Below, piece by piece: positions 5,910 through 62,274 of a stretch of DNA of 64,000 nt. Made by a program: the position numbers and the translations under genes. Every line of letters starts with the position of its first letter. The first letter of the stretch is position 1. The notes below the pieces were generated by a model that was given only the letters and a program-made list of their open reading frames with translations, did no database searches and was not told the DNA's origin. The stretch covers positions 404,250 to 468,249 of the forward strand of contig CAVSIP010000003.1 in assembly GCA_963728075.1 (NCBI GenBank), given 5' to 3'. Source of the DNA: an uncultured Actinomycetota bacterium (GTDB taxonomy: Bacteria > Actinomycetota > Actinomycetes > JAFAQI01 > DASSKL01).

Positions 5910-7619
5910 GTGGGCCACGTCGACGTCGCGCATGTGACGCACGCGCTGCCGGACGGCCGGGTGCTGCTGGACGACGTGTCCTTCCGGGTCGGCGACGGCG
6001 CCAAGGTGGCGCTCGTCGGAGCCAACGGCTCCGGCAAGACCACGCTGCTACGCATCGTCGCCGGTGACCTGCAGCCCGCGGACGGGACCGTGACCCGCAG
6101 CGGCGGGGTCGGCGTGATGCGTCAGTTCGTGGGCTCCGTCCGCGACGGCTCCACCGTCCGCGACCTGCTGGTGTCGGTGGCGCCGCCGCGGGTCGTGGCC
6201 GCGGCGGAGGCGCTCGACGCGGCGGAGCTGGCGATGATGGAGGCCGACGACGAACCGACGCAGCTGCGCTACGCCCAGGCACTGGCCGACTGGGCCGACG
6301 CCGGCGGCTACGACGCGGAGGTGGTCTGGGACGTCTGCACGACCGCCGCCCTGGGCCTGCCGTACGACCGTGCGCAGTGGCGCGAGGTCCGTACCCTCTC
6401 CGGCGGCGAGCAGAAGCGGCTCGCGCTGGAGGCGCTGCTGCGCGGGCCCGACGAGGTGCTGCTGCTCGACGAGCCCGACAACTACCTCGACGTGCCGGCC
6501 AAGCGGTGGCTCGAGGACGCCCTGCGGGACTCGCCCAAGACCGTGCTGTACGTCTCCCACGACCGGGAGCTGCTCGCCCGTACCGCGACCCGCGTCGTCA
6601 CCGTCGAGATCGGTGCCGCCGGCAACACCGTCTGGACGCACGGCGGCGGCTTCGCCGGCTACCACGATGCGCGCCGCGACCGGTTCGCGCGGCTGGAGGA
6701 GCTGCGCCGGCGGTGGGACGACAAGCACGAGCAGCTGCGCGAGCTGGTCCGCACGCTGCGGCAGAAGGCCGCGAACAACGACGGGATGGCCAGCCGGTAC
6801 CAGGCCGCGGTGACCCGGCTGGCGAAGTTCGAGCAGGCCGGCCCTCCGCAGGCGGTGCCCCGCGAGCAGGACGTCCGCATGCGGCTGGCGGGCGGGCGCA
6901 CGGGCAAGCGGGCGGTCGTGTGCGAGGACCTCGAGCTGACCGGTCTGATGCGGCCGTTCGACCTGGAGGTCTGGTACGGCGAGCGGGTGGCCGTGCTCGG
7001 CGGCAACGGCTCGGGCAAGTCGCACTTCCTGCGGCTGCTGGCCGCGGGCGGGAGCGACCCGGACCCCGAGCACCGCCCGGTGGACGACCTGGTCGTCCCC
7101 CCGGTGGCGCACACCGGGGCCGCGCGGCTGGGGGCGCGGGTGCGGCCGGGCTGGTTCGCCCAGACCCACGACCACCCCGAGCTGTACGGGCGCACGCTGC
7201 TCGACATCCTCTGGCGGGGCGACGGTCACCGGCGTGGGCTGGCCCGTGAGGAGGCCGCCCGGGCTCTGGACCGCTACGAGCTGGCCGTGGCCGCGGAGCA
7301 GGCATTCGAGTCCCTGTCGGGAGGGCAGCAGGCGCGGCTGCAGATCCTGCTGCTCGAGCTGTCCGGGGCCACGTTGCTGCTGCTCGACGAGCCGACCGAC
7401 AACCTCGACCTGGTCAGCGCCCAGTCGCTCGAGGACGCGCTGGCGTCCTTCGACGGCACGGTGCTGGCCGTGACCCACGACCGGTGGTTCGCCCGGTCCT
7501 TCGACCGGTTCGTCGTCTTCGGCGCCGACGGCGAGGTCTACGAGGCGCCCGAGCCGGTCTGGGACGAGCGCCGCCCCGTCCGCCAGCCCGGCGCCAGGTC
7601 ACCTTCGTGCGGCCCATGA
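5910..7619 (+). CDS. ABC-F family ATPase (two ABC cassettes, no membrane domain)
   Basis: 569 aa. Walker A GANGSGKT and GGNGSGKS, two signature motifs (LSGGEQ, LSGGQQ), two Walker B (LLLDEP), charged inter-domain linker. The last codons and the stop lie inside repeat copy A. Confidence 0.85.
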   Translation: MGHVDVAHVTHALPDGRVLLDDVSFRVGDGAKVALVGANGSGKTTLLRIVAGDLQPADGTVTRSGGVGVMRQFVGSVRDGSTVRDLLVSVAPPRVVAAAEALDAAELAMMEADDEPTQLRYAQALADWADAGGYDAEVVWDVCTTAALGLPYDRAQWREVRTLSGGEQKRLALEALLRGPDEVLLLDEPDNYLDVPAKRWLEDALRDSPKTVLYVSHDRELLARTATRVVTVEIGAAGNTVWTHGGGFAGYHDARRDRFARLEELRRRWDDKHEQLRELVRTLRQKAANNDGMASRYQAAVTRLAKFEQAGPPQAVPREQDVRMRLAGGRTGKRAVVCEDLELTGLMRPFDLEVWYGERVAVLGGNGSGKSHFLRLLAAGGSDPDPEHRPVDDLVVPPVAHTGAARLGARVRPGWFAQTHDHPELYGRTLLDILWRGDGHRRGLAREEAARALDRYELAVAAEQAFESLSGGQQARLQILLLELSGATLLLLDEPTDNLDLVSAQSLEDALASFDGTVLAVTHDRWFARSFDRFVVFGADGEVYEAPEPVWDERRPVRQPGARSPSCGP

Positions 7620-7692
7620 CCCTCTTCGTGCGGCCAGGTGTGGTCTGGCGATCTTGGTTGACCCCAGCAGGCCGCACGAAGGTGTGGGGTGG
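7597..7692 (+). repeat. copy A of a conserved palindromic intergenic element (core; similarity may extend to about 7582..7715)
   Basis: Perfect 15-bp inverted repeat, caccttcgtgcggcc (7600-7614) and ggccgcacgaaggtg (7670-7684). An internal second copy of cttcgtgcggcc sits at 7624-7635. Alignable to 61291..61386. Confidence 0.7.
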
Positions 7693-7718
7693 TGGCTGGT
7701 AGGTGGCGTGGGGCGGCT

Positions 7719-7748
7719 TTGACCGGCCGGACGGGTGACGGTTATCCT
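7719..7748 (+). promoter_or_regulatory. candidate promoter for rplM-rpsI
   Basis: TTGACC (7719-7724), 18-nt spacer, TATCCT (7743-7748), about 75 nt upstream of the rplM GTG. Pattern only. Confidence 0.35.
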
Positions 7749-7823
7749 GTTCGGGTTGTGCGTGCGCCGCTGCGTGCGCGCAGTACGACTCACCGACCCT
7801 ATCGATCACGACGAGGCCTCACC

Positions 7824-8267
7824 GTGCGCACGTACAGCCCGAAGTCCGCGGACGTCCAGCGGCAGTGGCACGTCATCGACGCCACTGACGTGGTGCTCGG
7901 CCGGCTGGCCAGCCAGACCGCCCGTCTGCTGCGCGGCAAGCACAAGCCGTACTTCGCGCCGCACGTCGACACCGGCGACTTCGTCATCGTCGTCAACGCC
8001 GCCAAGGTGGCGCTCACTGGCAACAAGCGGCAGCAGAAGATCGCCTACCGCCACTCCGGTTACCCGGGCGGCCTCAAGCGCACTCCGTACGAGGAGCTGC
8101 TCACGCGCCGGCCGGAGAAGGCGATCGAGAAGGCCGTGAAGGGCATGCTGCCGGCCGGCACGCTCGGCCGCCAGATGCTCTCCAAGCTCAAGGTGTACGC
8201 CGGCCCCGAGCACCCGCACCAGGCTCAGCAGCCGACGCCGTACACCCTCAACCAGGTCGCCCAGTAA
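7824..8267 (+). CDS. rplM: 50S ribosomal protein L13 (uL13)
   Basis: GTG 7824 gives [30 protein letters not shown]... The track ORF's N-terminal extension from 7689 was rejected. Confidence 0.93.
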
Positions 8268-17827: not shown

Positions 17828-18636
17828 CACCATCCCCCGGCATGACGGCACCTGGACCCGCGTCGGCCACCGGCGGTGCGCTGCTCGACATCGCGGACGT
17901 CACCGTCCGGTTCGGCGGTCTGGTCGCGCTCGACAGCGTCTCGACCGATGTCCGCCCGGGCGAGGTCCTCGGTGTCATCGGCCCCAACGGCGCCGGCAAG
18001 ACGACGCTGTTCAACGTCGTCTGCGGCTTCGTCCGGCCCGACGCCGGAGTGCTGACCTGGCAGGGCGAGCGGCTGACCAGCCACGAGCCGCACGACCTGT
18101 CGGCGCTGGGCATCGCCCGCACCCTGCAGGGCCTGGGCCTGTTCCCGCACATGAGCGCGGTCGAGAACGTCATGGTCGGCGCGACGAACCACGCTCGGGC
18201 CGGGTTCTGGTCCGCGCTGCTGGCGCTGCCCCGGTCCACGCGCGACGAGCGGCGGTTGCGGGAGACCGCGATGGCCGCCCTGGACGAGCTCGGTATCGCG
18301 GACGCGGCACCCAAGCTGCCCGGTGCCCTCCCGTACGGCGTCCAGAAGCGGGTCGCCCTGGCCCGCGCGCTCGTCGCCGAGCCGCGGCTGCTGCTGCTCG
18401 ACGAGCCGGCGTCCGGCCTGTCCAGCGACGAGATGCACGAGCTCGGCCAGCGCATCCGCAGCCTGCGCGAGCGCATGTCGGTGATGCTCGTCGAGCACCA
18501 CATGGACCTGGTCATGGAGGTCTGTGACCGGATCACGGTGCTCGACTTCGGCGCCGTGATCGCGAGCGGCCCGCCGGAGGAGATCCGCAACGACCCACGA
18601 GTGCTCGAGGCCTACCTCGGGGAGGTGGCGGAGTGA
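17824..18636 (+). CDS. livG: branched-chain amino acid (Liv/Bra-type) ABC transporter ATP-binding protein, LivG-like (operon I)
   Basis: Walker [10 protein letters not shown], LivG-specific insertion, signature LPYGVQKR. Alternative ATG at 17842. Confidence 0.82.
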
Positions 18637-19367
18637 GCGCCCCCGCGCAGCCCTCGACCATGCTCGCGGTCGCCGACGTGGTGACGGCGTACGGTGCCGT
18701 GCACGCGCTGGACGGGGTCAGCATCGACGTCCCGACCGGCGGGATCACCGCGGTGCTGGGCGCCAACGGGGCCGGCAAGACGACCCTGCTGCGCACGGTC
18801 AACGGCCTGGTCCGGCCCAGGTCGGGGAGCATCCGCTTCGACGGCCACGAGCTCGCGGGCATGGCGCCGGAGAAGGTCGTGACCCTGGGTCTGAGCCACG
18901 TCCCCGAGGGCCGCGGTGTCATCGCCGAGCTCACGGTCGAGGAGAACCTGCGCCTCGGCGGGCTGTGGCGCCGGCGCAAGGCCGAGCTCGCCGAGGACTA
19001 CGACCGTGTGTACGAGATGTTCCCGCCGCTCGCCGAGCGTCGGCGGCGGACGGCGTCGACGCTGTCCGGTGGCGAGCGTCAGATGCTGGTCATCGGCCGG
19101 GCGCTGATGGCCCGGCCACGGCTGCTCCTGCTGGACGAGCCCTCGCTCGGCCTGGCCCCGCGGATCACCGCGCAGATCATGCACCTGCTGCGCGGGCTCT
19201 GTGACGACACCGGGCTCACCGTGCTGCTCGTGGAGCAGAACGCCCGCTCGGCACTGTCCATCGCGGACCGTGCGGTGGTCCTCAACCTCGGCCGCGTGGT
19301 CGCCTCCGGCCCGGCGAGCGATCTCGCCGGGGACGAGCAGCTACGGCACGCCTACCTCGGCTTCTAG
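18633..19367 (+). CDS. livF: Liv/Bra-type ABC transporter ATP-binding protein, LivF-like (operon I)
   Basis: 244 aa. [26 protein letters not shown]. 4-nt overlap with livG. Confidence 0.85.
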   Translation: MSAPAQPSTMLAVADVVTAYGAVHALDGVSIDVPTGGITAVLGANGAGKTTLLRTVNGLVRPRSGSIRFDGHELAGMAPEKVVTLGLSHVPEGRGVIAELTVEENLRLGGLWRRRKAELAEDYDRVYEMFPPLAERRRRTASTLSGGERQMLVIGRALMARPRLLLLDEPSLGLAPRITAQIMHLLRGLCDDTGLTVLLVEQNARSALSIADRAVVLNLGRVVASGPASDLAGDEQLRHAYLGF

Positions 19368-30062: not shown

Positions 30063-30907
30063 GGAGTGGGGTCCCCCTTCTGCATCGGGTCGCGTTCGTC
30101 GGTGCCGAGGTAGGCGCGGATGACGTCGGGGTGCTGCTGGATCTGCTCGGGGCTGCCCTCGGCGACCAGGCGGCCGAAGTCGAGGACGGTGATCCGGTCG
30201 CAGATGCCCATGACCAGACCCATGTCGTGCTCGACGAGCAGGATCGAGATGCCCAGGGCGTTGCGGACCTGCAGGATCGTGGCGGCCATCCGCCGGGTCT
30301 CGTCGGCGTTCATGCCCGCCACCGGCTCGTCGAGGAGCAGGACCTGCGGCTCCATCGCCAGCGCGCGGGCGATCTCGACGCGCTTCTGGTCCCCGTAGGA
30401 GAGGTTGCCGGCGTACGCGTCGAGCTTGTCGCCGATCCCGAGGAAGCCGGCGATCTCCCGCACCCGCCCGGTGTGCCGCCGCCGCTCACGTACGGCGGCA
30501 GGCAGGGCCAGCCCGGTGCCGAGGAAGCCGGCTCGGGTGAGGTGGTGCCGGCCGAGCATGACGTTCTCCAGCACCGTCTGATGCTTGGACAGTGCGATGT
30601 TCTGGAACGCCCGCCCGACGCCGAGCGCGGCCACCCGGTGCGGCCGCAGGCCGGTGAGCTGGTTCTCGCCGAGGAACACCTGGCCCTCGGTGGCGCGGTA
30701 GACGCCGGAGATCACGTTGAAGCAGGTCGACTTGCCGGCACCGTTGGGGCCGATGAGGCCGTGGATGGTCCCGGGCTCGACGGTGAAGGACACGCCGGAG
30801 AGCGCCTCGACGCCGGCGAAGCGCATGGTGACGTCGCGGACGACCAGTGGGGGGAGCTCGACGTCGTGGCGAGGCAGGGCCTGGGCGGGCACGTTCATCC
30901 CGACCAC
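30059..30907 (-). CDS. livG: Liv/Bra-type ABC transporter ATP-binding protein, LivG-like (operon II)
   Basis: 282 aa. GPNGAGKST, LSYGDQKRVEIARAL, LLLDEPVAG. Confidence 0.85.
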   Translation of the reverse strand: MVGMNVPAQALPRHDVELPPLVVRDVTMRFAGVEALSGVSFTVEPGTIHGLIGPNGAGKSTCFNVISGVYRATEGQVFLGENQLTGLRPHRVAALGVGRAFQNIALSKHQTVLENVMLGRHHLTRAGFLGTGLALPAAVRERRRHTGRVREIAGFLGIGDKLDAYAGNLSYGDQKRVEIARALAMEPQVLLLDEPVAGMNADETRRMAATILQVRNALGISILLVEHDMGLVMGICDRITVLDFGRLVAEGSPEQIQQHPDVIRAYLGTDERDPMQKGDPTP

Positions 30908-31692
30908 CGGGACAGGGTCGCGCTGGTGCCGTTGGCGGCCAGCGCGCTGATCTCAGCGCGCTCGGCCGACGCGCGTCCGAGGTAGAGCTGCTGCACCTCG
31001 TCGCTACGCGCCAGCTCCCGGGCGCTCCCGGACAGCGACACCCTGCCCACGTCGAGCACGTACGCGTCGTGCGCGACCTCGAGGGCCATGTTCGCGTTCT
31101 GCTCGACGAGCAGCACCGCCGTGCCCTGCCGGTTGATCTCCGCGATCACCTCGCCGATCTGGCGGATGATGAGCGGGGCCAGCCCGAGCGACGGCTCGTC
31201 GAGGAGCAGCAGCCGCGGGCTCGCCATGAGCGCCCGGCCGATGGCGAGCATCTGCTGCTCGCCGCCCGACAGCAGACCCGCGCGCTGGCGCCGGCGCTCC
31301 ACGAGGACCGGGAACAGCTCCTCCACGCGAGCCCGGGCCTGCGCCACGGCGGCTCGGTCGGCGCTGCCCATGGCTCCGGCACGCAGGTTCTCCTCGACCG
31401 TCAGCCGCGAGAAGATGCGCCGGCCCTCGGGCGCCTGGACGACCCCGGCGGCCACGATCGTGGCCGGGTCACGTCCCCGCAGCGACCGCTCGCCGAGCCG
31501 GATGTCGCCGCTGTCGATGCCGCCCTTGTGCACGCGCAGGGTTCCGGAGATGGCCCGCAGCAGGGTGGACTTGCCGGCCCCGTTGCTGCCCAGCAGGGCG
31601 ACGACGGCGCCGTCGCGCACCTCGAGGGAGATCCCCTTGAGCGCCTGCACCGTGCCGCCGTAGGAGACATGCAGGTCCTCGACCTGAAGCAT
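30895..31692 (-). CDS. livF: Liv/Bra-type ABC transporter ATP-binding protein, LivF-like (operon II, first gene)
   Basis: 265 aa. GSNGAGKST, LSGGEQQML, LLLLDEPS. A roughly 25-aa C-terminal extension overlaps the livG start by 13 nt. Confidence 0.85.
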   Translation of the reverse strand: MLQVEDLHVSYGGTVQALKGISLEVRDGAVVALLGSNGAGKSTLLRAISGTLRVHKGGIDSGDIRLGERSLRGRDPATIVAAGVVQAPEGRRIFSRLTVEENLRAGAMGSADRAAVAQARARVEELFPVLVERRRQRAGLLSGGEQQMLAIGRALMASPRLLLLDEPSLGLAPLIIRQIGEVIAEINRQGTAVLLVEQNANMALEVAHDAYVLDVGRVSLSGSARELARSDEVQQLYLGRASAERAEISALAANGTSATLSRWSG

Positions 31693-31845
31693 GCCACCGC
31701 CCTTCCGCCGTTGGCTCGTCCTGCGATCCGCGCATTCAACCCTGTGATGTACGCCACAAGCACGCTCCGAGACCTAACCGTGACCTGAACGACGTCCGGG
31801 TTAGCCCGTACGGGCTCCGGCCGGCCGGCTCCGTAGCCTGGAGAG

Positions 31846-34053: not shown

Positions 34054-34069
34054 CCGCTGGCCCTAGATT
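34040..34069 (+). promoter_or_regulatory. groES-groEL promoter
   Basis: TTGACG (34040-34045), 18-nt spacer, TAGATT (34064-34069), interleaved with the two CIRCE elements. Confidence 0.6.
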
Positions 34070-34094
34070 GGCACTCGGCGCAGGTGAGTGCCAA
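34068..34094 (+). promoter_or_regulatory. CIRCE HrcA operator 2 (perfect palindrome, actinobacterial variant)
   Basis: TTGGCACTC-N9-GAGTGCCAA. Arms are exact reverse complements, 16/18 to consensus. Overlaps the -10 and the start of the 5' UTR of groES. Confidence 0.85.
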
Positions 34095-34185
34095 TCAGCG
34101 ACGAGGCTCCTGGACACCCGCGACGGACAGGTTGCCGAACTCGCCTCCACCACGAACTCCGCAAGGTGAACGGGGAGGTCAGGTC

Positions 34186-34544: not shown

Positions 34545-36191
<1,647 letters not shown>

Positions 36192-36210
36192 CGCGAGGCC
36201 GTACCACGTC

Positions 36211-36252
36211 CGCGTGACGCCCTGCCGGCTCCGGTCGGCAGGGCGTCACGCG
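36211..36252 (+). terminator. groEL terminator hairpin
   Basis: Perfect 17-bp stem cgcgtgacgccctgccg / cggcagggcgtcacgcg with an 8-nt loop, 20 nt after the stop. Confidence 0.75.
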
Positions 36253-36281
36253 CGTTCGGGTGGGGTTAGCCTGCTCCTGCC

Positions 36282-59113: not shown

Positions 59114-59719
59114 GTGTCCGCGCGGCTGGTCGTCCTCGTCTCCGGCTCCGGCACCAACCTGCAGGCCCTCCTCGACGCGTGCGCCGACCCGGGGTACGGG
59201 GCGCAGGTCGTCGCGGTCGGTGCCGACCGGCACGGGATCGAGGGGCTCGCGCGCGCCGAACGGGTGGGCGTGCCGACGTTCGTCCTGCGGGTGCCGGACT
59301 TCCCGGACCGCCCCGCATGGGACGCCGCGATCACCGACGCGGTCGCCGGGTACGAACCCGACCTGGTCGTCTCGGCGGGGTTCATGAAGCTCGTCGGCCC
59401 CGCCTTCCTCGCCCGGTTCCGCGGCCGGTTCGTCAACACCCACCCGGCGCTGCTGCCGTCGTTCCCCGGCATGCACGGCGCGAGCGACGCCCTGGAGTAC
59501 GGCGTCAAGGTGGCGGGGGCGACGCTGTTCCTCGTGGACGAGGGCGTCGACACCGGCCCGATCGTGGCGCAGCGCTGTGTCGACGTGCGTGACGACGACG
59601 ACGAGGCGTCGCTGCACGAACGGATCAAGGGCGTGGAGCGGGAGATGCTCGTCAGCGCCGTCGGCAGGATGGTCCGGGAGGGCTGGACCGTACGTGGAAG
59701 GAAGGTCTCGATCCCATGA
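59114..59719 (+). CDS. purN: phosphoribosylglycinamide formyltransferase
   Basis: GTG 59114. [16 protein letters not shown].., [12 protein letters not shown].., [12 protein letters not shown]. Confidence 0.92.
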
Positions 59720-61281
59720 GCAAGCGACCCATCCGCCGGGCGCTCGTCAGCGTGTACGACAAGACCGGGCTGGAGGGGCTGGGCCGGGTGCTCGCCGAGC
59801 ACGGCGTCCAGGTCGTCTCCACCGGCTCCACCGCTGCCCGGCTGCGGGACGCCGGGGTCGGCGTCACCCCGGTCGAGGAGCTCACCGGCTTCCCGGAGTG
59901 CCTCGAGGGCCGGGTGAAGACCCTGCACCCGAAGGTGCACGCGGGCATCCTCGCCGACCTGCGCAAGCCCGACCACGAGCGGCAGCTGGCCGACCTCGGG
60001 GTCGAGCCGTTCGACCTCGTCGTCGTGAACCTCTACCCGTTCCGCGAGACCGTGGCCTCCGGGGCGGCGCCGGACGAGGTCGTCGAGCAGATCGACATCG
60101 GCGGGCCCTCGATGGTCCGGGCCGCGGCGAAGAACCACCCGTCCGTCGCGGTCGTCGTCTCCCCGGACCGGTACGGCGAGGTGGCCGACGCCGTCCGCTC
60201 CGGCGGGTTCAGCCTGGAGCAGCGCACCCGGCTGGCGGCCGAGGCGTTCGCGCACACCGCTGCGTACGACGTCGCGGTCGCCTCCTGGTTCGCGAGCGTG
60301 CAGTCCCCCGACGCGGTGGCCGCCGAGTCCGGCTTCCCGGACTTCCTCGGCGGGACGTGGTCGCGCTCGGCCGTGCTGCGCTACGGCGAGAACCCGCACC
60401 AGCGGGCCGCCCTGTTCGTCTCCCAGGACGGGCCGGCCGGGCTCGCGCAGGCACAGCAGCTGCACGGCAAGGAGATGTCGTACAACAACTACGTCGACAC
60501 CGACGCGGCCCGGCGGGCGGCGTACGACTTCGGCGACCCCTGCGTGGCGGTCGTCAAGCACGCCAACCCCTGCGGGATCGCGGTCGGCGCCGACGTCGCG
60601 GAGGCGCACCGCAAGGCGCACGCCTGCGACCCGGTGTCCGCGTTCGGAGGCGTCATCGCGACCAACCGGCCGGTGTCGGTCGCCATGGCCGAGCAGGTCG
60701 CGGAGATCTTCACCGAGGTGGTCTGCGCGCCGGCGTTCGACGACGGTGCGGTGGAGATCCTCGCGCGCAAGCCGTCGATCCGGCTGCTGCTGTGCCCCCC
60801 GCCCGCGTCCCGCGCGGGCCTGGAGATGCGGCAGGTCAGCGGTGGCCTGCTCCTGCAGAGCATCGACACCGTCGACGACCCCGGCGACGACCCGGCGGGC
60901 TGGTCGCTGCAGGCCGGCGACCCCGCCGACGCGGCGACGCTGGCCGACCTCGGGTTCGCCTGGCGGGCCTGCCGGTCGGTGAAGTCCAACGCGATCCTGC
61001 TCGCGGCCGACGGTGCGACCGTCGGGGTCGGCATGGGCCAGGTGAACCGCGTGGACGCGGCTCGACTCGCGGTGGCCCGCGCCGGGGACCGCGCGACCGG
61101 GGCGGTCGCGGCGAGTGACGCCTTCTTCCCGTTCCCGGACGGGTTCGAGGTGCTCGCCGAGGCCGGCGTCCGCGCGGTCGTCGAGCCCGGCGGCTCCGTA
61201 CGCGACGAGCTCGTCGTCGAGGCCGCCATGAAGGCCGGTGTCGCGCTGTACTTCACCGGCACGCGGCACTTCTTCCACTGA
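59716..61281 (+). CDS. purH: bifunctional AICAR transformylase / IMP cyclohydrolase
   Basis: 521 aa. ATGA overlap with pur[13 protein letters not shown].., ..KHANPCG.., C-terminal TGTRHFFH. Confidence 0.95.
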
Positions 61282-61290
61282 CACCAGCGC

Positions 61291-61386
61291 CCGCGCCTTC
61301 GTGCGCCCCACGACCGTCTTCATGCGGCCAGACGGGGCTGATGGAGATCGTTTGACCCCAGTACGTCGCACGAAGGCGCAGGGCGG
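61291..61386 (+). repeat. copy B of the palindromic intergenic element (core; similarity may extend to about 61283..61405)
   Basis: 12-bp inverted repeat cgccttcgtgcg (61294-61305) / cgcacgaaggcg (61367-61378). Alignable to 7597..7692. By hand count, the left block is 33/38 identical and the right block 30/38. Confidence 0.7.
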
Positions 61387-61410
61387 GGGCGGCGTGGGAG
61401 ACTCGGCCGC

Positions 61411-62274
61411 GTGAGCGCGCAGATCCTCGACGGCAACCAGGTCCTCGACCGCGTGAAGGACGACCTGCGCGAGCGGGTCGACGCGCTGAAGGCGGCCGGC
61501 GTGCAGCCGGGACTCGGCACGGTCCTCGTCGGCGACGACCCGGCGAGTGCGAAGTACGTCGAGATGAAGCACCGCAACTGTGCCGAGCTGGGCATCGACT
61601 CGGTCCACGAGCACCTGTCGGCGACGGCGTCGCAGGCCGACGTCGACGCGGTCGTCGACCGGTTCAACCGGGACGAGCGGGTCGACGCCTACCTCATGCA
61701 GCACCCGTTCCCCAAGGGGCTCGACTTCGAGGCGGCGCTGCTTCGCGTCGACCCGGCGAAGGACGTGGACGGGCTGCACCCGGTCAACCTCGGCCGGCTG
61801 CTGCAGGGCGTCCGCGGTCCCCGCCCGTGCACCCCGGCCGGGATCCAGGCCCTGCTGGCGCACTACGAGGTGCCCGTGGAGGGGCGCCACGTGGTGATCA
61901 TCGGCCGCGGTCTCACCGTCGGGAAGCCGCTGGCGGCCCTGCTCGCGCTGAAGGAGCCGCACGCGAACGCCGCCGTCACCGTGCTGCACACCGGCGTGCG
62001 CGACATCGCGCCGTACGTCCGCACCGCGGACGTCGTGGTCGCCGCCGCCGGTGCTCCGGGGATCGTCACCGCCGAGATGGTCAAGCCGGGCGCGGCGGTG
62101 GTGCAGACCGGCACGACGATCGTCGACGGGAAGTACCGCCCGGACGTGGACCCCGCCGTCCGGGAGGTCGCAGGCTGGTTCTCCCCGGTGACGGGCTCGG
62201 TCGGGCCGATGACCCGGGCCATGCTGCTGACGAACGTGGTCGAGGCCGCGGAGCGGCGCGCCGGCCTGCGCTAG
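61411..62274 (+). CDS. folD: bifunctional methylenetetrahydrofolate dehydrogenase / methenyl-THF cyclohydrolase
   Basis: 287 aa. GTG start. ..LVGDDPASAKYVEMK.., ..VIIGRGLTVGKPLA.., ..GSVGPMTRAMLL. Confidence 0.93.
   Translation: MSAQILDGNQVLDRVKDDLRERVDALKAAGVQPGLGTVLVGDDPASAKYVEMKHRNCAELGIDSVHEHLSATASQADVDAVVDRFNRDERVDAYLMQHPFPKGLDFEAALLRVDPAKDVDGLHPVNLGRLLQGVRGPRPCTPAGIQALLAHYEVPVEGRHVVIIGRGLTVGKPLAALLALKEPHANAAVTVLHTGVRDIAPYVRTADVVVAAAGAPGIVTAEMVKPGAAVVQTGTTIVDGKYRPDVDPAVREVAGWFSPVTGSVGPMTRAMLLTNVVEAAERRAGLR

Follow-up and report, generated by a model that had tools for sequence, protein, structure and literature searches.

At the junction of purH and folD in an uncultured Actinomycetota bacterium, the two genes are separated by a spacer of 129 nt within a stretch of 64,000 nucleotides of DNA, which was analysed as a whole and is referred to here as the window. 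The first-pass annotation of the window placed an element in this spacer (copy B), assigned to it a second copy between an ABC-F gene and rplM (copy A), and suggested that the element could gate folD. The locus raises the question of what the element is, how it came to lie at this junction, and whether it acts on folD. The features of the two loci and of the corresponding junctions in relatives are collected in Table 1.

Table 1. Positions of the features at the two loci, and purH-folD spacers in relatives
Feature	Position or length	Strand	Basis or remark
ABC-F gene	5910-7619	+	Pfam; stop TGA 7617-7619 inside copy A
Copy A, full extent (core 7600-7692)	7587-7697	+	alignment, nhmmer; covariance-model match 7585-7705, 136 bits
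Element-derived ABC-F tail PGARSPSCGP and stop codon	7587-7619	+	C-terminus comparison
Copy A left arm, CACCTTCGTGCG	7600-7611	+	pairs with 7673-7684
Copy A box 2, TCTTCGTGCGGCCAG, direct repeat of left arm	7623-7637	+	
Copy A right arm, CGCACGAAGGTG	7673-7684	+	
Promoter-like site for rplM, TTGACC-18-TATCCT	7719-7748	+	1 found, 0.0 expected; downstream of copy A
rplM	GTG 7824	+	Pfam PF00572
purH (AICARFT/IMPCHase), upstream gene	59716-61281	+	Pfam PF01808, E=5.9e-112; stop 1 nt before element
Last purH codons, UCUUCCAC	61271-61278	+	predicted pairing with folD Shine-Dalgarno region 61394-61401, base of element hairpin (MFE of 61270-61440)
Copy B, full similarity extent	61283-61391	+	alignment, nhmmer; covariance-model match 61281-61399, 138 bits
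Copy B left arm = box 1, CGCCTTCGTGCG	61294-61305	+	perfect complement of 61367-61378
Copy B box 2, TCTTCATGCGGCCAG, direct repeat of left arm	61317-61331	+	21 nt downstream of left arm
Copy B small inner hairpin CGGCC-AGACGG-GGCUG, variable middle	61325-61340	+	
Copy B conserved motif, TTGACCCCAG	61352-61361	+	within the window, present in the two copies only
Copy B right arm = inverted box 3, CGCACGAAGGCG	61367-61378	+	
GUGGGAGA, holds folD Shine-Dalgarno GGGAG (61396-61400)	61394-61401	+	10 nt before GTG 61411
folD, downstream gene	61411-62274	+	Pfam PF00763/PF02882
purH-folD spacer, L002	13 nt		element absent
purH-folD spacer, L001	22 nt		element absent
purH-folD spacer, L076	41 nt		element absent
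purH-folD spacer, L003	122 nt		element absent; unrelated palindrome

Concerning the relation between the two copies, positions 61294-61386 (copy B) and 7600-7692 (copy A) can be aligned without gaps and are identical at 68 of 93 positions. When all other positions of the window were compared on both strands, the mean was 27/93 with a standard deviation of 4.3. The best unrelated position reached 48/93, and a value of 53/93 was due to the element's own reverse strand. The match between A and B lies 9.6 standard deviations above this background in the 64-kb window, the G+C content of which is 73%. With either copy as the query, nhmmer detected the other copy in the window with an E value of about 3e-10, and nothing else. 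These results confirmed that A and B are copies of one element, as the first-pass annotation had claimed, and its block identities (33/38 on the left, 30/38 on the right) were obtained again when we recounted them from the list of differing positions. The divergence between the copies is 27% (25 differences over 93). The similarity runs about 10-13 nt past the core on each side, and the shoulders added in this way, C-rich on the left and G-rich on the right, pair with one another. The element is about 95-110 nt long, and its 12-bp arms may be subterminal if the C- and G-rich shoulders belong to it.

Both copies display the same layout, box 1, box 2, a variable middle, the conserved motif and an inverted box 3. 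Box 1 is a sequence of 12 nt, C[A/G]CCTTCGTGCG, and its core is directly repeated in box 2 (TCTTC[G/A]TGCGGCCAG), exactly 21 nt on in both copies, a repetition that the first-pass annotation had missed. Box spacing is likewise the same in A and B, with gaps of 12 and 39 nt. The exact 9-mer CTTCGTGCG is present in five of the six boxes and absent elsewhere in the window. The middle is nearly unrelated between the copies, except for GG[C/A]GATC and a small local hairpin, four of whose five pairs are possible in copy A in the same register (alignment columns 48-51 with 58-61, with one-sided GC/GU changes).

The orthologous purH-folD junctions of relatives were then compared with that of copy B. 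Among FolD proteins, the best non-self match reaches only 83% identity, and the relatives that carry a name are Acidimicrobiia MAGs. Four junctions could be taken from the closest relatives with readable loci, with FolD identities of only 79-83%. The element is absent from all four, and nhmmer with a profile of A and B gave no significant match in the loci of the relatives. The short junctions do not display any significant predicted fold. The 122-nt spacer harbours a palindrome whose arms are 33 nt long (dG -70.8 kcal/mol, z -6.7), which we considered as a distant member of the family and rejected, as it shows no similarity to A or B. In one further relative (L075), folD is not adjacent to purH. 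Judging from these comparisons, the 129-nt spacer is a lineage-specific gain of about 110 nt at an otherwise tight operon junction. Absence from relatives at 79-83% FolD identity dates the insertion; it does not show mobility. The proposal that a conserved element gates folD does not agree with these junctions. As grounds for giving up the element, the first-pass annotation had named orthologous loci without it together with a lack of copies elsewhere; the former is what we found at the four junctions, and the latter is not the case. Because a second copy exists, the element can be regarded as a real repeat family and not a product of chance. We infer that copy B is co-transcribed with purH and folD, because the spacers of 13-41 nt in relatives indicate an operon. 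A terminator scan detected no terminator-like site at copy B. A TGA overlaps the GTG of folD, and this overlap is also found in relatives without the element.

At the other locus, homologues of the ABC-F protein at 79-84% identity number more than 100, and most are 558-560 residues in length. All of the 11 that we inspected end with ...VWDExRVxRxR, two of them one or two residues earlier, and none has a tail. The protein encoded in the window reads ...PVWDERRPVRQ and then continues with PGARSPSCGP before the stop, and thus carries 10 extra residues. The extra codons start at 7587, exactly at the position where the similarity between A and B starts, and because of this coincidence, copy A is seen to have overwritten the last codon and the stop of the ABC-F gene, as judged from the sequence comparison. 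Both copies are on the plus strand at the 3' end of a plus-strand gene, as had been described. The accompanying statement that they begin at or just after the upstream stop codon holds for copy B and not for copy A, in which the stop of the ABC-F gene lies inside the element. The closest homologue of the ABC-F gene resides at a locus (L074) that is not syntenic with rplM, and provides no empty-site comparison for copy A. As for rplM, the promoter-like site listed in Table 1 is the only sigma-70-like site in 7400-7900, and it is situated between the 12-bp stem of copy A and the GTG of rplM, which are 139 nt apart. As this site lies downstream of copy A, the copy belongs to the 3' end of the ABC-F gene rather than to an rplM leader, and a gating of rplM is not supported.

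Taking these results together, the element is probably a lineage-specific, non-coding palindromic interspersed repeat, similar to MITEs or REPs, which was inserted at the 3' ends of two unrelated genes. The purH-folD spacers of relatives without the element and the ABC-F tail starting at 7587 argue for an insertional origin, and the neighbours of the two copies, ABC-F and rplM on the one hand and purH and folD on the other, are unrelated in terms of Pfam families. The boxes would represent terminal or subterminal recognition sites of the protein that moved the element. Other observations count against this reading. With respect to MITEs, no target-site duplication is visible at the borders of the arms, whose identity with the true ends is uncertain. 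With respect to a mobile family, only two copies are known, both in the 64-kb window, and no relative was found in the other collections searched.

The boxes can also be understood at the DNA level as a cluster of protein-binding sites with three copies of CTTCGTGCGGCC, of which two are in direct orientation at a spacing of 21 bp (two helical turns) and the third is inverted. A regulator, a nucleoid protein or a recombinase could bind there, and the hairpin potential would be incidental. Such a cluster would account for the 9-mer shared by five of the six boxes and confined, within the window, to the two copies, for the identical 21-nt spacing of the direct boxes in A and B, and for the fact that the boxes are conserved more than pairing alone requires. 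On the other hand, neither a cognate protein nor a known motif was identified, the orthologous loci are devoid of the sites, and the model does not predict the complementarity that we found in the flanks outside the boxes. We regard this explanation as unlikely, with the reservation that it overlaps with that of an inserted repeat if the bound protein is the transposase of the element.

The complementarity of the flanks is found at both loci. At copy B, 61262-61281, which comprises the end of the purH coding sequence with its last codons, pairs with 61392-61410 in a duplex of -22.4 kcal/mol, compared to -12.3 ± 2.8 kcal/mol for shuffled sequences, 0.2% of which reached the observed value. At copy A, 7552-7586, corresponding to the 3' coding end of the ABC-F gene, pairs with 7698-7732 (-45.9 kcal/mol; shuffles -33.9 ± 4.4 kcal/mol, reached by 1.4%). 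The left flanks at both loci are ancestral coding sequence, and the paired flanks are locus-specific and lie beyond the shared element. The pairing could go back to an older hairpin that received the element in its loop, to a palindrome that grew outwards through template switching, or to selection in favour of a long hairpin; if the element is an inserted repeat, the complementarity could reveal one of the first two processes.

Strong hairpins at two gene ends also bring to mind a pair of related factor-independent terminators or 3' stabilising hairpins, kept by the host and not mobile, having spread for example by gene conversion. The predicted folds are indeed strong (-94.7 kcal/mol for 7560-7730 and -80.4 kcal/mol for 61270-61440), each copy begins where the gene upstream of it stops, and copy A precedes the next promoter. 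In addition, the inner hairpin of copy A at 7633-7649, followed by GATCTTGGTT, was flagged by the terminator scan. However, this was the only hairpin of the element to be flagged; the main stem leads into a G-rich run and not a U tract, and a canonical intrinsic terminator was rejected on these grounds. A terminator would also be unexpected inside the purH-folD operon, where the spacers of relatives are 13-41 nt. Elsewhere in the window, hairpins at gene ends are unrelated in sequence and their loops are short (6-20 nt), and the reading frame of the ABC-F gene was damaged by copy A, which suggests an insertion rather than a tuned terminator. Terminators or stabilisers of this kind have a low probability in our estimation.

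The stem that defines the palindrome is a perfect, long-range one of 12 bp in both copies (61294-61305 with 61367-61378, and 7600-7611 with 7673-7684). The single compensatory change that had been noticed in it, cAcc/ggTg in copy A and cGcc/ggCg in copy B (A-U to G-C), is present. With the 25 differences distributed randomly, the stem kept every pair with a probability of 0.0024. Two or fewer substitutions fell in the stem in 1.3% of the trials, and given two stem substitutions, both kept the pairing in 4%. The 12-bp stem is preserved beyond neutral drift. RNAalifold predicted an interrupted outer helix of 19 bp and a helix of 5 bp, in which the changes between A and B comprise two on both sides (A-U/G-C and C-G/G-C) and four one-sided ones between GC and GU, with no broken pairs. 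A control in which pairs were shuffled gave 138/500, a value that is uninformative with two sequences.

The first-pass annotation had taken the covariation to indicate selection on pairing rather than on sequence. We could not uphold this as evidence for an RNA, as covariation between two sequences cannot separate selection on RNA from maintenance of the palindrome at the DNA level. Besides the uninformative control, elements whose two ends are read by one protein keep identical inverted ends, and template switching corrects DNA palindromes on both sides; these DNA-level mechanisms give the same pattern. Invariant arms with a free interior are, as far as the two sequences indicate, the pattern of inverted-repeat elements and not of riboswitch-like RNAs. 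In terms of predicted folding, each strand exceeded its shuffles in one copy or the other, and each strand has G.U pairs of its own. Box 3 pairs perfectly with box 1 in both copies. With box 2 its pairing is perfect in copy A and contains one uncompensated A.C mismatch in copy B, due to a G-to-A change in box 2. The predicted fold of copy A is box 2 with box 3 in isolation and box 1 with box 3 when flanks are included, and that of copy B is box 1 with box 3.

If the element is an inserted repeat, its copy in the purH-folD spacer would be transcribed in the operon and fold into a long hairpin with the insert looped out. This would place the stop codon of purH beside the ribosome-binding site of folD at the base of the stem, an arrangement that would make the insertion tolerable. 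In the manner of REP or Correia elements, the hairpin may shield the mRNA upstream or act as a partial barrier to read-through. Because the Shine-Dalgarno sequence of folD is predicted to pair with the last codons of purH, folD translation may also require ribosomes that finish purH and melt the basal helix, that is, translational coupling. The roles as stabiliser, read-through barrier or coupling device are drawn from predicted folds, whose z-scores on the plus strand of copy B are modest (-1.7 and -1.8). Any specific effect on folD is doubtful, and would be a by-product of the insertion rather than a conserved regulatory design.

A more elaborate variant can be envisaged, in which the two-plus-one boxes form a portable RNA module, or else the asymmetric transposase-binding ends of an undescribed mobile family in Acidimicrobiia-like actinobacteria. 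As a module, box 3 would pair with either of the direct boxes to give two alternative hairpins, the basal helix would recruit the flanks of each locus (at folD, the Shine-Dalgarno sequence together with the final codons of purH), and ribosome-dependent coupling or a conformational switch would be installed wherever the module is inserted between genes. As transposase-binding ends, the boxes would belong to a family that also extends its palindrome into target DNA. We consider this variant to be quite improbable.

The choice of box 3 between box 1 and box 2 as its partner is also central to the possibility of a cis-regulatory RNA, a riboswitch, attenuator or leader of folD and rplM that would switch between two states. 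Both copies are on the sense strand upstream of a plus-strand gene, copy A changes its predicted partner from box 2 to box 1 in the longer fold, the two both-side and four GC/GU changes leave every pair intact, and the folD Shine-Dalgarno sequence is included in the predicted basal helix. This possibility is nevertheless very improbable. The element is missing at four of the four orthologous purH-folD junctions, and neither copy occupies a 5' UTR downstream of the promoter of the gene in question, copy A being upstream of the rplM promoter-like site and overlapping the ABC-F stop, and copy B intercistronic. There is no match in Rfam, box 3 of copy B does not compensate for the G-to-A change in its box 2, and the conserved stem sequence with a variable interior is the reverse of the usual riboswitch pattern. 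The covariation control does not lend weight to an RNA with only two sequences. To our knowledge, there is no ligand logic shared by L13 and FolD.

We searched for further copies and for known families. No third copy was found in the 64-kb window by repeat finding, pattern search, or nhmmer and a covariance model with filters off. A covariance-model match of 22.6 bits at 36197-36261 was rejected, as it corresponds to an unrelated terminator-like hairpin. The three-box pattern gave no matches in 185,579 GTDB species genomes. The arms-only pattern gave 69 loci in the GTDB genomes, none with box 2 or GACCCCAG and all with nhmmer E values above 0.1. In JGI metagenomes the right-block pattern had one chance match, inside a coding sequence of an organism with lower GC. 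Three patterns gave only chance matches in viral contigs, and BLAST against plasmids and phages gave no match. Rfam 15 returned nothing relevant, either for the whole window at the gathering score or for both loci at E<=10, and ARAGORN detected no tRNA or tmRNA. Protein space was included in case called ORFs run through further copies. With a six-frame concatenate no relative was found there, a weak negative as only 8000 word-sharing candidates were scored, and a profile of the +1 frame matched only unrelated repeat proteins among 1.84 billion protein representatives. A search of the literature for REP-like elements in Actinobacteria found nothing relevant. Going by these collections, the family does not extend beyond its source lineage. 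Chance similarity of GC-rich spacers, or a small coding sequence, is practically untenable: high GC breeds spurious matches and open frames, and one frame is indeed open through both copies, but a match 9.6 standard deviations above background with E=3e-10 effectively refutes chance, and a coding element was rejected because only 3 of the 19 differing codons are synonymous (counted by hand), protein searches gave no relative, and the TGA overlapping the folD start occurs in the relatives too.

If the reading as an inserted repeat is correct, the element adds one more lineage-specific palindromic insertion repeat, in poorly sampled uncultured actinobacteria, and its value lies chiefly in annotation. 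Both the odd length of the purH-folD spacer (129 nt) in the otherwise tight purN-purH-folD operon and the 10 additional residues at the end of a highly conserved ABC-F protein are then accounted for. The case also serves as a caution that a single compensatory change between two copies of a repeat is not evidence for a riboswitch-like RNA. At folD, translational coupling across an insertion that is looped out would become open to testing.

Among known systems, two were rejected as counterparts of the element. Integron attC sites consist of the R''/R' sites RYYYAAC ... GTTRRRY, which end an imperfect palindrome after the ORF of a cassette. In our element, GTTGACC and GTTTGAC do not fit GTTRRRY, RYYYAAC is absent on the left, and the flanking genes are core housekeeping genes. 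Mycobacterial MIRUs are tandem units of 46-101 bp located between the genes of operons, and their small ORF overlaps the stop and start of the neighbours. Here the units are single and palindromic rather than tandem, and the overlap of a TGA with the folD GTG is shared with element-free relatives.

With MITEs, the element has in common its short length (about 95-110 nt, within the roughly 50-500 bp of MITEs) with no coding signal and no protein match, its inverted ends, in the form of perfect 12-bp arms in both copies, and its presence or absence at orthologous sites (four junctions and 11 ABC-F homologues without the tail); there is no direct repeat next to the arms in either copy, and the true ends are uncertain. 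The Correia or NEMIS elements of Neisseria and the RUP elements of Streptococcus pneumoniae are bacterial MITEs of about 100 nt, non-coding and forming a long hairpin when transcribed. They lie next to or overlap gene ends, are co-transcribed with their neighbours and are lineage-restricted. Our element resembles them in size, non-coding nature, hairpin-forming inverted-repeat ends, position at gene ends and absence in relatives. In contrast to them, its left end carries a second direct terminal box (two plus one), which is atypical of Correia or RUP elements, and there is no visible target-site duplication, two copies are known, and no parent IS has been identified.

REP and BIME sequences of Enterobacteria and Pseudomonas are mobilised by RAYTs, and are imperfect palindromes of 20-40 nt with a GTAG head that occur in hundreds of copies. 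They are found at gene 3' ends and inside operons, where they stabilise the upstream mRNA and modulate read-through. The element is similar to these in being an extragenic palindrome at gene 3' ends, with conserved arms, variable loops, and direct as well as inverted units. It differs in having a 12-bp stem around an interior of 61 nt, and GTAG is not present at the borders of the arms. Rickettsia palindromic elements measure 100-150 nt, occur in many genes and are, as a rule, inserted in frame in the interior of the gene. The resemblance to these is that of a palindromic repeat which adds residues to a protein, as copy A adds a 10-residue tail to the ABC-F protein, whereas copy A replaced no more than the last codon and the stop, and the second copy is intergenic. 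Finally, quasipalindrome correction by template switching would explain both the paired changes in the stem and the spread of palindromy into the flanks without selection on RNA, and is a mutational mechanism rather than a family of elements. In comparison with all of these systems, the only unusual traits of the element are its layout of two direct boxes and one inverted box and the complementarity of its flanks.

Both copies of the shared repeat, copy A between the ABC-F gene and rplM and copy B between purH and folD, were found to lie within further complementary sequence. At both loci the flanks, which are locus-specific and situated outside the shared repeat, pair beyond shuffled controls, and the Shine-Dalgarno sequence of folD falls within the pairing flanks of copy B. 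An older hairpin that served as the insertion site, extension of the palindrome by template switching, or selection are all possible origins of this complementarity. 3' of the main stem, both copies carry G-runs on the plus strand, whose pairing partner in each case is the C-rich left shoulder.

Flank pairings and G-runs at the two copies of the shared repeat
Feature	Position	Strand	Sequence or result
Flank pairing, copy A	7552-7586 with 7698-7732		outside shared repeat; exceeds shuffled controls
Flank pairing, copy B	61262-61281 with 61392-61410		outside shared repeat; exceeds shuffled controls
G-run, copy A	7686-7705	+	GGGGTGGTGGCTGGTAGGTGG
G-run, copy B	61384-61398	+	GGGCGGGGGCGGCGTGGG

The same purH-folD spacer of a relative whose FolD is 82% identical (locus L003) is occupied by a near-perfect palindrome with 33-nt arms (2520-2589; dG -70.8 kcal/mol, z -6.7). 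As this palindrome is unrelated to the repeat of the window, the junction has independently gained different hairpin elements.

Hairpins were also met in other genomes. Verrucomicrobia bacterium LW23 harbours a family at six loci (L010, L013, L026, L036, L050 and L071) with conserved arms of ~25 nt, cggctttgtccc-CCTTCGTGCGAAA ... TTTCGCACGAAGG-gggacaaagccg, whereas the loops differ entirely from copy to copy. The family is REP-like, and by coincidence it contains the 10-mer that served as the search pattern. Similar multi-copy matches were present in a Gammaproteobacteria MAG (L011, L016 and L025, the copies being identical) and in Erythrobacteraceae genomes (L048, L062, L063 and L065).

Elsewhere in the window, 18000-19200 and 30100-31700 display a long inverted similarity on opposite strands, with arms of up to 174 nt that are 73-79% complementary. 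The LLLLDEP motif is typical of ABC ATPases, and its presence in one arm raises the possibility that the two regions may be paralogous ABC ATPase genes.

The sole extra match of the covariance model in the window was weak (22.6 bits), a GC-rich terminator-like hairpin at 36211-36252, CGCGTGACGCCCTGCCGG...CGGCAGGGCGTCACGCG. Its sequence is unrelated to the repeat. The hairpin immediately follows an ORF (34545-36191) that, at a guess, is a putative chaperonin gene. Upstream of this ORF is a perfect 11-bp inverted repeat (34066-34096), GATTGGCACTC-N9-GAGTGCCAATC, which resembles the CIRCE/HrcA operator consensus, TTAGCACTC-N9-GAGTGCTAA.
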